Of a stretch of 64,000 nt of DNA, positions 44,101-50,100 are shown one piece after another (position 1 is the stretch's first letter; each line of letters starts with the position of its first letter). The stretch comes from Escherichia coli (GTDB taxonomy: Bacteria; Pseudomonadota; Gammaproteobacteria; Enterobacterales; Enterobacteriaceae). The stretch lies in assembly GCF_002854065.1 (NCBI RefSeq), contig NZ_CP024147.1. One strand, given 5' to 3'. The position numbers are program-made.

Positions 44101-47100
44101 TGTGCTATTGCCCAGCAGAAATTTTTTAAATTAGTACTGTTCCAGGGGCATTACAAACCTTAAAACATTACTTCAATATAATTAATGTGTATATCATTCT
44201 TGATATTAATTTATGAAGTGAATTTGATATATTCCGAATTCTTAATTTACATTACTAATGTATGGGACATAACGTTAAGATGGCTATGTGCAGATTAAGA
44301 TATCAGGGTGGGGCGGTAGCGTTTACAGATATTAATTAATTGATGAGAGCTATGTTATCCGCACAATCATTTACATCAGCTATTGATATTGAAGATAGAT
44401 AAATAAATATGCTGAGAATTAATGTTAAGGAATCGTAATGGGAAACTTTGATAACTTGCTTTGATTTCATTCTCTATGAAGATGATGTCATCAACACTGC
44501 ATAAAGTGGAAATATTGAACATCAAAGAGAACCATATTTAATAAATAATAACAGAGCGTTTGTGTTTATCTGAAAAATATCATTTCCAGGAGGTAGGATA
44601 TGTCATTAAGGAGAATGACATCTGGTGAATTAGCATTGGCCAGATCGATTTTTGAAAATACAATTGATTATAGTAAGGTATGGATCCACAATGAAAAATA
44701 TTTGCCGGGTCAAGGGGAAAGAACAGCGATGACCCCAAACGGGGAAATGTATTATCCTGATGCTGTTTATAGTTCAGATTATTCATCGCAAACAATGCCT
44801 GGTGATCGTGAAACAGTAGCAGGTGCTTCTCACTTGTTTATTCATGAAATGATGCATGTTTGGCAATATCAGAAAGGGTATGCAGTTAAGTTGCGTGGTT
44901 TATTTTCCTGGGCGGCAAATTATCATTACGATCTTAATTTACAGTCAATTTCTTCTTATTCCATGGAACAACAAGCATCTATAGTTGCTGATTATTGGCT
45001 ATTGATTAACTATGGACTGGTGGCTGATTTGGCAAATGTTAACTATGTAGGTGATACAACTGAATCCGTTAACACTCTATCGGAAAAATACAAAAAGGTG
45101 CTTAATTTATTTCCTGCGGGTGTCATATGAAGAGATTCTTTTTGTTTTTCTTTTTGTCGGGATGCACTGTTGGTGATTATGTTCGCCCATTGTTACCCGG
45201 TAATGTATATTTACAAGATGGACGGGTTTGTTCAAAACCAGACGATGGAGGTATTATTTCAAATTATATTTTATATGAAGGTAAATATGGCAATGCAATA
45301 AAGCTGAAAAGAGTAACAGGTCAGTTCGACCCCGTATGTATTGACATAAGTGAGCTATCTTCAGATGTTATTTATATCGGGCAATATATGCTCTCTTCCG
45401 GAAGTAAAAAAGAATACTATGGTTTTAGAATAATTAGATCCGGAGTACGTATTTTAAGACTTGATGATAACCATATCAAATAACAGATTAAAAATTTTAT
45501 TAGTTTCATTAATGTGCTTTAGGTGAATGTTTTCACCAGGTTAACATGACGGTGCATTCTTCAAGGCATATATGGTTGATAGTATCTTCAGTAGCTCGCA
45601 TAAGTATTGAGATGTTTTACGCCAGTTACGAATATATTGCATATTTTATTCTCTGTAAGATTTCTTATTAGCACTTAGCCATTTCTAGTTAAAAGGATTA
45701 ATTATGAGTTTTGCAGCTACAGATTATCCATCCGGCGCACTAACTGGATCGGGTACACATAACGTGACTTTGAGCGGCAGCGCAGTTCCTGATGGAATGT
45801 TACTGTTTGCAAGCTTAGGGGGTACAGAAACAGTAGGGGAACTATTTACTTATTCTATTAAATTAAAAACTCCTGACATCCTGAACCTGGGCTATGTTTC
45901 CCCCGCCGCAAACCTGCAGCTCAAACCGATGGTGGGCAAAGATCTGTGCGTCCATATCGAACTGGATGGCGGCGGAAAACGTTATATCAGCGGGCTGGTG
46001 ACGGCGGCACGCGTGGCTGGTCATCAAGGACGTTCGGTGGTGTATGAACTGCGGCTCGAACCGTGGTTAAAAATACTGACCCACACTAGTGACTACAAAG
46101 CGTTTCAGAATAAAAACGTGGTGGACATCCTGGATGAGGTACTGGATGAGTATCCCTGGCCAGTGGAAAAACGGCTGGTGGAAAATTATCCGACTCGCGC
46201 CTGGCAGATGCAGTACGGTGAAACAGATTTCGCTTTTATTCAGCGCCTGATGCAGGAGTGGGGTATCTACTGGTGGTTTGAGCACAGCGAGAACAGTCAC
46301 ACGTTAGTGCTGGCTGATGCCATTAATGTCCACAAGGCATGCGCAGATTCGCCGCTGGTGTGTTATTACCAGAAAGGGCTGAAACTGGACAAGGAGTTTA
46401 TCCATACCATCACAGCAAATGAAAGTCTGCGCAGCGGACAGTGGGTGCTGAATGATTTCGACTTTATGAAGCCGCGTTCACTGCTGAAGAGCACCGTGGC
46501 TAATCCGCGTGAAACCGGCCTTGCTGAATATGAGCACTACGAATGGCCGGGAGATTACTTCACAAAGAGTGAAGGTGAAATGCTGACACGCATTCGCATG
46601 GAAGAACAGCGTAGCCCCGGTAGTCGGGTACAGGGCAGCGGCAATATTCGTACCCTGATGACAGGTTTTACCTTCACCCTGGAAAACTATCCGACAGCCG
46701 AAGTGAACCGGGAATATCTGCTGGTACAGACCACGCTATTTATACAGGACAATGCGCAACACAGCGGCCAGGAGCAGCATTTCTCTTACTCAACCAGCTT
46801 TGAACTGCATCCCACCAGCGAAGTTTACCGCCCACAACGAACCCTGAGCAAACCCCACACTAAAGGCCCGCAGAGTGCCATCGTCACCGGCCCGGCAGGG
46901 CAGGAAATCTGGACAGATAAATATGGCCGGGTGAAAGTTCAGTTTGGCTGGGATCGTTACGGTAAGAATGACGAAAACAGCTCCTGCTGGGTCCGTGTCA
47001 GTTATCCGTGGGCTGGTAAAGGATTCGGTGGCATTCAGATCCCGCGTATTGGTCAAGAAGTACTGGTGGATTTCAAAAACGGTGATCCGGATTTACCGAT

Positions 47101-50100
47101 AATCGTTGGGCGTACCTACAACCAGGACACCATGCCACCGTGGGGACTACCTGAACGGCGTGTACGACAGCACGGGGCACCTGCTGCGTGAGTTTGCTTA
47201 CGACGAAAACCACTGCATGACGCTGCACCGCCAGCCGGGCGGCGAAGGGTATTATTACCAGTGGGGCTGGTATGACGGTCCGGATGATGCGGCGTGGCGG
47301 GCACCCCTCCGAAATCTTCACCGTGACACCCCGCCCGGTATCAAATCCGGCCTCTTTCAGCCAGTCGCCCTTAAGGTTCAGGCTGGGGTGTCGTGAGTAG
47401 TACGTGGTCATGTAGGTTTTGCTGTTTATGTGGCGGGCTCTGACATAGCCGACTTTATAGCGTCGCTGTGTTTTGGAAATGGTGACTTCTGGCGTAATAT
47501 CGTGTTCAGCCATGATTAACTACTCCTGTTAGTTGCTTGTGGTGAGCGGCTGTTACAGGCGGCCACCTGTAGCAGTCGCGTTAAATATCAACGCATTACC
47601 TTCATTACCTGCTTCATCTTCTCCTGCGTGATCGCCATATCCAGAATACGGCAGATCACTTCCTGATCGTCTGCTTTAAGCTCAGGGAAAGATCATCAGA
47701 AGTTCACTTTTTGTACTAAATAATTCGCATTTTATGTTTAAAAATTGAGATATTCCTCATTACCTGAAGCTGTTTTTTATTGCTTATACATGATCAAATA
47801 CTCCTTACATAATTAAGGAGAACAAAATGGAACTTAAAAAATTGATGGAACATATTTCTATTACCCCCGATTACAGACAAGTCTGGAAAGTGGAACATAA
47901 ATTATCAGATATTCTACTGTTGACTATTTGTGCCGTTATTTCGGGTGCAGAAGGTTGGGAAGATATAGAGGATTTTGGGGAAACACATCTCGATTTTTTG
48001 AAGCAATATGGTGATTTTGAAAATGGTATTCCTGTTCACGATACCATTGCCAGAGTTGTATCCTGTATCAGCCCTACAAAATTTCATGAGTGCTTTATTA
48101 ACTGGATGCGTGATTGTCATTCTTCAGATGATAAAGACGTCATTGCAATTGATGGAAAAACGCTCCGGCATTCTTATGATAAGAGTCGCCGCAGGGGAGC
48201 GATTCATGTCATTAGTGCGTTCTCAACAATGCACAGTCTGTTCATCGGACAGATCAAGACGGATGAGAAATCTAATGAGATTACAGCTATCCCTGAACTT
48301 CTTAACATGCTGGATATTAAAGGGAAAATTATCACAACTGATACGATGGGTTGCCAGAAAGATATCGCAGAGAAGATACAAAAACAGGGCGGTGATTATT
48401 TATTCGCGGTAAAAGGTAACCAGGGGCGGCTTAATAAAGCCTTTGAGGAAAAATTTCCGCTGAAAGAATTAAATAATCCAGAGCATGACAGTTACGCAAT
48501 GAGTGAAAAGAGTCACGGCAGAGAAGAAATCCGTCTTCATATTGTTTGCGATGTCCCTGATGAACTTATTGATTTCACGTTTGAATGGAAATGGCTGAAG
48601 AAATTATGCGTGGCAGTCTCCTTTCGGTCCATAATAGCAGAACAAAAGAAAGAGCCAGAAATGACGGTCAGATATTATATCAGTTCTGATGATTTAACCC
48701 CAGAGAAGTTCGCCAGAGCAATCCGAAACCACTGGCACGTGGAGAATAAGCTGCACTGGCGTCTGGACGTGGTAATGAATGAAGACGACTGCAAAATAAG
48801 AAGAGGAAATGCAGCAGAATTATTTTCAGGGATACGGCACATTGCTATTAATATTTTGACGAATGATAAGGTATTCAAGGCAGGGTTAAGACGTAAGATG
48901 CGAAAAGCAGCCATGGACAGAAACTATCTGGCGTCAGTCCTTGCGGGGAGCGGGCTTTCGTAATCTTGCCCTGGTTCGTTGAGTTTTACTGCATTGTCGG
49001 TAATTTAGGCATCTCCTTTGTCCGTAGCTTGTTTCAGCGTCTATAATGGGCGTTAATAAATTGGCAAGTCGGGAACTAGATGTTTTCTTAATGGTATGTT
49101 GGCAGAAGAATATGTTCTGCAAGTTGAAGATTTGTTGGTGCTTTATTTAAAAGGGTGTAGTGCAAATATCTACAATTTCAAGCAGGCATTATTGTCGTAA
49201 AAACGCTTTACCGGACACACGACATTCACAATGTGTGTTAATTTTACTGACATCTTTCAAAAGGAGCGTAATCATGCCGCACATCGACATTAAATGTTTT
49301 CCGCGTGAACTGGACGAACAACAAAAAGCAGCACTTGCTGCAGATATTACCGACGTTATTATTCGCCATTTGAACAGTAAAGACAGTTCGATAAGCATTG
49401 CTCTACAGCAGATTCAACCAGAATCTTGGCAAGCTATCTGGGATGCCGAAATCGCGCCCCAAATGGAGGCTTTGATAAAGAAACCCGGTTACAGCATGTA
49501 ATGCTTAACCTGCCGTAACTCGCTTGCCGCTGGTAACAAACGTGCCAGCACCTAAATGATGCAACGTATTGAGCTTATCATCATCAAACTGCCAGCGGCC
49601 TTCGACAAATACCTGTGCGTCTGCCGCTGCTGATACTACCTCGCCAAACAGTGTGTCGTATTTTTCTTGCGCGGAAGTCGCAGGTAGCAAGCGGCACTCC
49701 ATCCACGCCAGACATTTTGCCTCGACCAGAGGCAAACCAAGTACCGGACCTTTCACAACCGGAATGCCATAGCAATTAAATTTATCTTCATCACGCCCCG
49801 ACACACTTCCCACCGCCCACGTCCAGTTAGTTGCTGCAACGCCCGGGATAACGATGCCAAATTTACCGTTATGTTCAATCAACTCCCTGGTCCATGTCGA
49901 TTTATCTACCACAATCGCCACGCGTGGAGGTTCAAACTCCACCGGCATTGACCAGGCTGCAGCCATAATGTTACGCCGCTGGGATTGCTCATCGAAACTG
50001 GTGATCAAGACCGTTGGGCCATGATTTAACAGACGGCTGGCATGGTGTAATTCTATGGGGATGAATCGGCTCATGGTATCGCCTCGCGAAGAAGGTTTTT

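Follow-up and report, generated by a model that had tools for sequence, protein, structure and literature searches.

A decayed Rhs/T6SS cargo locus in Escherichia coli with a truncated SymE-family toxin gene and an apparently intact SymR-like antisense RNA gene

In Escherichia coli K-12, the small RNA SymR blocks translation of symE (Kawano et al. 2007, PMC1891008), and SymE has been described as a DNA-binding protein that resembles MazE and has C-terminal helices (PMC11894785). SymE-family genes also occur with genes for Cro/cI-type HTH (cHTH) proteins and primase-helicases beside RHS genes, and their regulator was proposed to be either a transcription factor or a small RNA (PMC1891008). In Salmonella, IsrA, an RNA of 423 nt, was detected in cis-antisense to STM0294.1n, with inverse expression of the two (Padalon-Brauch et al. 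2008, PMC2330248).

Here we compare these systems with a locus in a 64,000-nt stretch of E. coli DNA (contig NZ_CP024147.1; hereafter the window), the features of which are collected in Table 1. Like K-12 symE/symR, the window locus has a SymE_toxin domain, a cis-antisense RNA gene of the approximately 77-nt, two-hairpin architecture that starts at +6 of the ATG and covers the Shine–Dalgarno (SD) sequence and start codon, and, at an equal distance, a −10 box that lies within the toxin ORF. Unlike K-12 SymE, which lies in the hsd–mcr region, the window copy sits in an Rhs/T6SS locus, is truncated at residue 71, shares only about 32–37% protein identity and lacks a LexA box, with a cHTH remnant standing where K-12 has its SOS promoter. 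Orthology to K-12 symE was rejected, as the NCBIfam equivalog NF010128 scores 40.5 bits against a cutoff of 132. The window copy belongs instead to the cHTH–SymE-family operon class found near primase-helicase and RHS/haemagglutinin genes (Kawano et al. 2007, Fig. 7), although, unlike in intact operons of this class, both protein genes are truncated. The locus also resembles the RhsE-type E. coli Rhs locus upstream of pptA–yddH–nhoA, with the same chromosomal site, the same ydcC-carrying H-rpt and the decay of the rhs core into fragments that is typical of this locus.

Table 1 Features of the locus in window coordinates
Feature	Position	Strand	Evidence
vgrG′, N-terminal ~483 codons of a T6SS VgrG	45704..47152	+	Pfam Phage_GPD (2e-98), TIGR03361
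Non-homologous ORF tail, 75 codons	47073..47303	−	Antisense to rhs′, then vgrG′; no family match past residue 71
Internal rhs fragment (YD-repeat region), ~nt 1778–1930 of intact rhs	47149..47301	+	blastn
SymE-family gene, 5′ part, 70–71 codons (symE′)	47304..47513	−	Pfam SymE_toxin; alignment with intact 109-aa homologues; PGAP
Rfam isrA (RF01385) match	47314..47442	+	Antisense to SymE codons ~24–67; 119.3 bits against gathering score 51
Putative promoter of the symR-like gene, inside the symE′ coding sequence	47473..47500	+	−35 TTGGAA 47473–47478, 16-nt spacer, −10 TAATAT 47495–47500
symR-like cis-antisense RNA gene	47508..47585	+	Rfam symR, own covariance model, fold, covariation, G·U excess
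cHTH gene, 3′ remnant, last 31 codons and stop	47588..47684	−	blastn to L005 9285–9381
H-rpt/ISAs1-family element (ISEc1-like, 1292 bp)	47683..48974	+	NCBIfam NF033564 transpos_ISAs1 (3.9e-122)

The sequence-only reading had reported a minus-strand ORF at 47073–47513 with its ATG at 47513 and an upstream AGGAG, and both are present in the sequence of this 146-aa frame. Its proposal that about the first 70 residues are SymE-like was confirmed at the family level by Pfam SymE_toxin (PF08845), which matches residues 16–71 and profile positions 1–49 of 54 (64 bits against a cutoff of 29, E = 1.1e-17); judged by profile score, the match is far above chance level. Other E. coli carry, at this chromosomal locus, intact genes for 109-aa SymE-family proteins, and the DNA of symE′ shares 98% identity with their 5′ part. 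Homology ends after ...KISEGC (window 47300/47301), past C71 of the intact homologue, and the 38 missing codons correspond to the final β-strand (β4) and the C-terminal helix, together with the last five columns of the PF08845 profile; both the domain and the ORF are therefore incomplete. The expectation that the natural C-terminus was missing or replaced thus held, with unrelated antisense sequence in its place. Alignment to intact loci by blastn revealed that this tail runs antisense first to an internal rhs fragment (47149–47301) and then to a truncated vgrG (47073–47148). The earlier description of it as low-complexity antisense of a Rhs-like fragment fits its first two-thirds; it missed the vgrG part, and the sequence is not truly low-complexity. 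The same bases are called a SymE-family pseudogene missing its C-terminus by RefSeq/PGAP in identical genomes, so that the pseudogene status is already in the RefSeq annotation. One of these genomes, NZ_CM128593.1, contains a further matching locus.

Comparison with intact loci further revealed two collinear deletions, with 3-nt and 2-nt microhomology at the junctions (breakpoints 47149–47151 and 47300–47301), in which the vgrG 3′ end, a DcrB-like gene, most of rhs, an immunity gene and the last 38 SymE codons were lost. This deletion pair is rare: among 5,426 complete E. coli genomes, the junction occurs in just two. The vgrG–chaperone–rhs–immunity order is accordingly absent in the window, where 483 codons of vgrG and 153 bp of rhs remain; at the same chromosomal site (ansP ... 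pptA–yddH–nhoA) the intact version is still there in other E. coli (L002 and L003). The vgrG remnant is 98.6% identical to L002 173–1724 and is annotated by PGAP as a pseudogene missing its C-terminus; past the junction it continues out of frame until the stop codon at 47191. The rhs fragment is 94.8–96.1% identical to L002/L003 4570–4722, within an RHS core coding sequence at 2793–7465. An in-frame vgrG–rhs fusion protein was considered and rejected, as the vgrG frame ends 13 codons past the junction and the rhs fragment lies in another frame.

On the other side of symE′, the ISAs1 transposase and the element limits bear out the position that had been given for the ORF, between the Rhs remnant and H-rpt. 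The H-rpt carries ydcC (47827–48963), its limits were drawn from thousands of E. coli copies matching query 84–1375, and its ends read as the imperfect terminal inverted repeats CAGGGAAAGATCATCAGAAG and CAGGGCAAGATTACGAAAGC, in keeping with ISAs1 membership. Its left end truncates the cHTH gene, of which the remaining translation ends in ELKADDQEVICRILDMAITQEKMKQVMKVMR followed by the stop codon. The intact cHTH protein matches Pfam HTH_3 at 3.6e-12, and in intact modules its gene precedes symE. With this truncation of the native upstream gene, the H-rpt also removed what was likely the operon promoter. A promoter and terminator scan found no promoter-like site for symE′ on the minus strand of 47000–47900, and the LexA box that had been suggested as a check was not found either, a scan of 47500–47830 for CTG-N10-CAG being empty where K-12 has CTGTATATATCATCAG at the aligned position.

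The sequence-only reading had left open whether the ORF is paired with a symR-like antisense RNA. Such a gene is present and looks intact, and its recognition beside the SymE-family relic is new in the present analysis. It overlaps symE′ codons 1–2, the SD sequence and the 5′ leader, and begins at +6 of the ATG, in register with K-12 symR. Rfam symR matches over its full length (39 bits, E = 2e-5) but under the gathering score of 61; with a covariance model built in this analysis, the RNA scores 88.8 bits. Among 10 distinct variants, which amount to about 7 independent hairpin variants in an alignment fitted to the model, pairing is 97% and 12 of 21 pairs show double changes, including 11 of 14 pairs changed on both sides in the 3′ helix. 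None of 500 shuffles reached this level, and slid controls gave 28–54%. A metagenome scan for the conserved hairpin flanks returned 45 stretches, 10 of which match the RNA model at E ≤ 0.01 (9 strongly) and which add 2 new hairpin variants; a genome-wide homologue search returned 36 loci, many with different or damaged 5′ ends, and few symR-like sequences were gained from it.

The antisense promoter that had been proposed as a check can be read on the plus strand as a putative site inside the symE′ coding sequence, with 8 of 12 consensus matches, and was missed by a consensus promoter scan. Its −10 box sits 7 nt before the RNA start, and a TAnnAT box lies at the identical distance in K-12 (TAGAAT) and in two further loci, L006 (TAGAAT) and L021 (TACAAT), despite differing encoded amino acids. 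The symR-like RNA is probably still transcribed from this locus, and any read-through symE′ transcript would pair with it over the SD sequence and AUG and be silenced, as in K-12 symE/symR. The earlier ‘type I’ label is incomplete in that this subfamily normally has a Cro/cI-type HTH partner as well.

The same hairpins could alternatively be structure in a sense transcript, acting downstream of the cHTH gene as a terminator or attenuator, or belonging to the 5′ leader of the symE mRNA, and not a small RNA gene. The 3′ hairpin does begin 6 nt after the cHTH stop codon, and a perfect hairpin is possible on either strand, so that covariation alone gives no strand. Strand is indicated by other evidence: the alignment holds 40 G·U cells against 2 A·C cells, which would be the G·U cells of the minus strand, and this favours the antisense (+) strand; the plus strand of 47508–47585 folds into its two hairpins at −36 kcal/mol (z = −4.9), against −21.6 kcal/mol (z = −1.2) for the opposite strand; and the minus strand has no T-run after the hairpin. 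Together with the full-length, in-register homology to K-12 SymR, an RNA defined by experiment, and a −10 box that points in the plus direction at a conserved position, these asymmetries make a sense structure unlikely, and we retain the reading as an antisense RNA gene.

A second plus-strand candidate is the isrA match, well over its gathering score, by which the functional element would be an IsrA-type Hfq-binding small RNA and the SymE-like frame opposite would be incidental. The detection of the Salmonella RNA favours this view. The window locus lies just downstream of rhs–immunity genes, as in Salmonella SPI-6. The opposite strand, however, holds a bona fide Pfam SymE_toxin domain, and, in E. 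coli and Salmonella alike, every SymE-family coding sequence tested gives an isrA match on its antisense strand; the conservation of isrA is therefore explained by coding constraint. As a structured RNA, isrA was rejected in this sequence set: 0 of 20 pairs of the Rfam structure show a double change, pairing (75.5%) is no better than in shuffles (76.2%), and that of helix 1 is 52.5%. Moreover, the model starts 12 nt downstream of a deletion junction, and the sequence 5′ of the match is accordingly unlike that of intact loci. We regard a functional IsrA-type RNA here as quite improbable, and the window match as the antisense of the SymE-family coding core. By the same token, Salmonella STM0294.1n would be a candidate SymE-family gene. 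The retrieved Salmonella contigs (L042) carry a piece of rhs joined to the 5′ end of SymE, and a terminator was lacking at the distance expected for IsrA.

Because a good SD sequence and ATG remain, translation of the 146-aa ORF may occur. An AlphaFold model of the intact homologue (pLDDT 77) places β4 at residues 71–76 and the helix at 79–108, and alignment to it indicates that the window copy keeps the N-terminal tail and β1 to β3. In a Foldseek search of this model against the PDB, the top match was E. coli MazE (2mrn) at E = 0.75, with MazE, VapB and AbrB entries recurring; because this match is not significant, the claim of a broken fold rests on the Pfam profile and the secondary structure of the model. 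As the truncation takes away β4 and the C-terminal helix, the model suggests that the symE′ product is unlikely to be toxic; the chimeric protein, if made, could probably not build the swapped-hairpin dimer and would therefore be non-toxic and unstable. That the ORF is a functional new toxin, with a SymE DNA-binding core, a novel C-terminus and a promoter in or near H-rpt, is very improbable: its intact AGGAG and ATG, 146 open codons and retained N-terminal tail and first three strands are set against a tail that is antisense to rhs and vgrG and matches no family, the absence of β4 and of the oligomerisation helix, a minus strand devoid of promoter-like sites, a junction in only two genomes, the PGAP pseudogene call and an antisense RNA that would repress it.

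We consider it very probable that the locus is a decayed T6SS/Rhs cargo locus with a dead SymE-family toxin gene and an apparently intact SymR-like RNA gene. Its ancestor would have been a complete T6SS cargo locus with vgrG, a DcrB-like chaperone gene, rhs, an immunity gene, a convergent cHTH–symE-family module and H-rpt. The two microhomology deletions would have joined vgrG codon ~483 to the 153-bp rhs piece and the rhs piece to SymE-family codon 71, and the H-rpt/ISAs1 element would have taken away all of the cHTH gene except its last 31 codons. Left over would be a dead toxin gene without its last AbrB/MazE-like β-strand, C-terminal helix, partner regulator and native promoter, along with the apparently intact antisense RNA gene and its own putative promoter inside the residual coding sequence.

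Intact relatives place such modules in a wider setting. In L005, cHTH–symE lies within rhs-CT/immunity arrays, next to genes for a tyrosine recombinase and a DnaG-type primase/P-loop protein, and units of approximately 6.6 kb stand three in tandem. A rather doubtful but broader reading is that the cHTH, SymE-family and SymR-like trio is the stabilization module of an undescribed integrative element of this size, that the window holds a fossil of one and that the surviving RNA could act in trans. Such an element, with a tyrosine recombinase and a DnaG-type primase-helicase, may shuttle rhs-CT/immunity cassettes into Rhs loci; if so, the surviving SymR-like RNA could counter other SymE-family modules, or incoming ones, as an orphan antitoxin.

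The window locus is itself an ordinary relic of a known system and of low interest; its pseudogene matters little beyond documenting the decay of an Rhs/T6SS cargo locus. The intact relatives, found in tandem units that combine recombinase and primase genes with rhs toxin tips, may merit study of their own. The Rfam family isrA seems to represent the strand opposite SymE-family coding sequence, which ties an unexplained Salmonella island small RNA to toxins of a known family. In the Rhs-linked, cHTH-associated SymE subfamily there is a true SymR homologue that the Rfam threshold misses, and, unlike in the either/or proposal of Kawano et al., a cHTH gene and a covarying symR-like RNA occur together in L005, L003 and L021; in this subfamily, therefore, protein and RNA regulators coexist and do not replace each other.

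The minus-strand ORF that the sequence-only reading had credited with about 70 SymE-like residues is present (146 aa), in a stretch with the E. coli chromosomal gene order hrpA ... ansP ... pptA-yddH-nhoA-nar. A profile search matched residues 16–71 to Pfam SymE_toxin (PF08845; E=1.1e-17, profile positions 1–49 of 54), bearing out that assignment, and gave no credible family match past residue 71. Because the NCBIfam K-12 SymE equivalog reached just 40 bits where its cutoff is 132, the gene is a SymE-family member and not the symE orthologue. Annotation of the family is widespread: the search for SymE-family homologues returned 372 at E<=1e-5, mostly named 'SymE family toxin', and several copies in other genera appear truncated or frameshifted. 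In two RefSeq genomes identical over the stretch, PGAP annotates 47304–47513 as 'SymE family type I addiction module toxin, incomplete, missing C-terminus' and 45704–47152 as truncated vgrG.

Features of the window, with matching positions in the intact locus L002 where aligned
Feature	Window position	Strand	Detail
RydC sRNA	9494–9557	-	Rfam, at gathering threshold; standard E. coli feature
sok antitoxin RNA of hokB	10117–10268	-	Rfam, at gathering threshold; standard E. coli feature
vgrG 5′ part	45600–47151		L002 173–1724 (blastn)
ORF, 146 aa	47073–47513	-	ATG at 47513, AGGAG upstream
Internal rhs	47149–47301		L002 4570–4722 (blastn)
SymE-family 5′ part	47300–47547		L002 8001–8248 (blastn)
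Rfam isrA (RF01385) match	47314–47442	+	119 bits
cHTH 3′ remnant (Cro/cI-type HTH gene)	47588–47684	-	last 31 codons and stop, ...ELKADDQEVICRILDMAITQEKMKQVMKVMR
H-rpt/ISAs1-family element, 1,292 bp	47683–48974		carries ydcC 47827–48963

At the same chromosomal site, two E. coli loci (L002, L003) have an intact layout of vgrG (664 aa), a DcrB-like gene, rhs (about 1,550 aa), an immunity gene and a convergent SymE-family gene (109 aa), followed by ISAs1/H-rpt. Breakpoint mapping by blastn of the window against L002 gave three collinear blocks, and two deletions of 2,845 bp and 3,278 bp, each with 2–3 nt of junction microhomology, produced the present structure. As had been anticipated, the natural C-terminus is gone: the last 38 SymE codons (LTIIADSDEVQELREELYQVKQVVKGMRNGMFSVLNDN) are deleted and an unrelated tail of 75 codons follows. 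This tail had been taken for the antisense of an Rhs-like fragment, which holds for its first two-thirds; the remainder is antisense to the vgrG remnant, whose reading frame stops 13 codons beyond the junction, the rhs remnant being in a different frame. The exact junction was found in only 2 of 5,426 complete genomes and is therefore a recent, lineage-specific lesion.

A 118-aa SymE-family ORF in Salmonella enterica (L042 5700–6060) has its 5′ end fused to an antisense rhs repeat fragment, the mirror image of the 3′ fusion in the window. Upstream of the vgrG remnant lie two small plus-strand ORFs of 176 and 118 aa (44600–45483), neither with a Pfam match; PGAP gives the former the name 'type IV secretion protein Rhs'. 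Directly upstream, between them and ansP, is a copy of IS1. In an identical genome (L093), an IS2 copy separates mnaT from curA (34516–35744; window ~36900–38150) and a CatB-related acetyltransferase gene follows patD.

An AlphaFold model of an intact SymE-family homologue (36-sequence alignment, pLDDT 77) has strands at 21–29, 36–45, 63–68 and 71–76, a short helix at 50–54 and a long C-terminal helix at 79–108; its first-ranked Foldseek match was MazE (E=0.75, not significant). Homology of the window copy to the intact gene ends at C71, so on this model it has lost the final strand of the MazE/AbrB-like domain along with the entire C-terminal helix. According to PMC11894785, citing Thompson et al. 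2022, K-12 SymE is MazE-like, binds DNA and condenses the nucleoid, and its C-terminal helices are predicted to act in dimer–dimer contacts. From the lost strand and helix and this published description, we infer that the fragment would be unable to assemble and non-toxic.

A LexA box (CTG-N10-CAG), which the sequence-only reading proposed to look for, was absent from 47500–47830 in a pattern scan, whereas K-12 has CTGTATATATCATCAG at the corresponding aligned position. The left end of the H-rpt/ISAs1-family element cuts cHTH at 47683/47684, and the native operon promoter of the SymE fragment is therefore gone; a promoter scan found no minus-strand promoter-like site. Intact cHTH, in the E. 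coli locus L005, encodes 132 aa (Pfam HTH_3, 3.6e-12) on the same strand as symE and 74 bp ahead of it. H-rpt ends recur upstream of symE, since in some copies (L005 15839–15886, L010 5940–6006) the H-rpt right-end repeat (CAGGGCAAGATTACGAAAGC) stands in for the SymR 3′ hairpin.

L005 (1–18381; E. coli PEC395, an RhsC-type locus beside ybgA-phrB) comprises three ~6.57-kb tandem units, each with an rhs core-end (DPIGL...DPLGL) and CT toxin, immunity gene, SymE-family gene (-), cHTH (-), a 910-aa DnaG-type Zn-ribbon/Toprim/P-loop protein (+), a tyrosine recombinase (+) and a hypothetical gene. The arrangement looks like an integrative element with orphan rhs toxin tips; no paper combining its features was found in the literature searched. 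A 2007 paper (PMC1891008) already described the SymE family and its AbrB/MazE ancestry, and reported cHTH, primase-helicase and RHS genes among its neighbours.

On the plus strand, Rfam symR matched over its full length at 47508–47582 (39 bits, E=2e-5, short of the gathering score of 61). Like K-12 symR, the RNA begins at +6 relative to the toxin ATG and reaches about 70 nt into the leader. The sequence also has a putative antisense promoter element: every variant carries a TAnnAT -10 box 7 nt ahead of the RNA start (TAATAT in the window, TAGAAT in K-12 and L006, TACAAT in L021 from Budvicia), its position kept despite different amino acids from the overlapping codons. The plus strand folds into two hairpins (-36 kcal/mol, z=-4.9) with the architecture of K-12 SymR (-37.8 kcal/mol, z=-5.3), whereas the minus strand folds no more stably than -21.6 kcal/mol (z=-1.2). 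Further variants were recovered with a covariance model made from 8 sequences. Among 10 distinct sequences, 97% of cells were paired and 12 of 21 pairs, including 11 of 14 in the 3′ helix, had changed on both sides; none of 500 shuffles came up to the real alignment in pairing percentage or covariation score, and slid controls gave 28–54% pairing. The hairpin might instead be a symE-leader structure or a cHTH terminator; the 40 G.U pairs on the plus strand, against only 2 cells that would be G.U on the other, argue against both and in favour of the antisense RNA as the molecule whose structure is under selection. We conclude that the window probably contains an intact SymR homologue gene. A SymR-like element and a cHTH gene occur together in L005, L003 and L021; Kawano et al. 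(PMC1891008) regard regulation by a transcription factor and regulation by an sRNA as alternatives.

A different SymE subgroup (N-terminus MATIPTQ...; L023–L027 and L031, from Yokenella, Leminorella, Atlantibacter and Siccibacter) carries a conserved hairpin of its own (CCGCCAC...GTGGCGG / CCACCAC...GTGGTGG) about 30–70 nt ahead of the SymE-family ATG. Its arms show what look like compensatory changes, and the symR model does not match it.

The Rfam isrA family, described as 'Hfq binding RNA', also matched the window, 12 nt from the deletion junction, which lies upstream. Each SymE-family CDS tested, from E. coli as from Salmonella rhs loci, has a match to its model on the antisense strand (matches in the window, L002, L003, L005, L006, L015, L021, L042, L045 and L046). 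The Rfam structure had no compensatory change and 75% pairing, the same as shuffles; conservation of the coding sequence opposite therefore accounts for the match. Salmonella IsrA was detected as a 423-nt RNA, cis-antisense to STM0294.1n, a gene with 'no clear functional annotation', and inversely expressed (PMC2330248). STM0294.1n is probably a SymE-family gene; no IsrA–SymE link turned up in the searchable literature.

The window fragment is real, was read correctly and is an ordinary decayed relic, which RefSeq already flags as a pseudogene. Added here are its exact breakpoints, a reinterpreted isrA match, the lack of SOS control, the remnant of cHTH and a covarying, apparently intact SymR-like gene.
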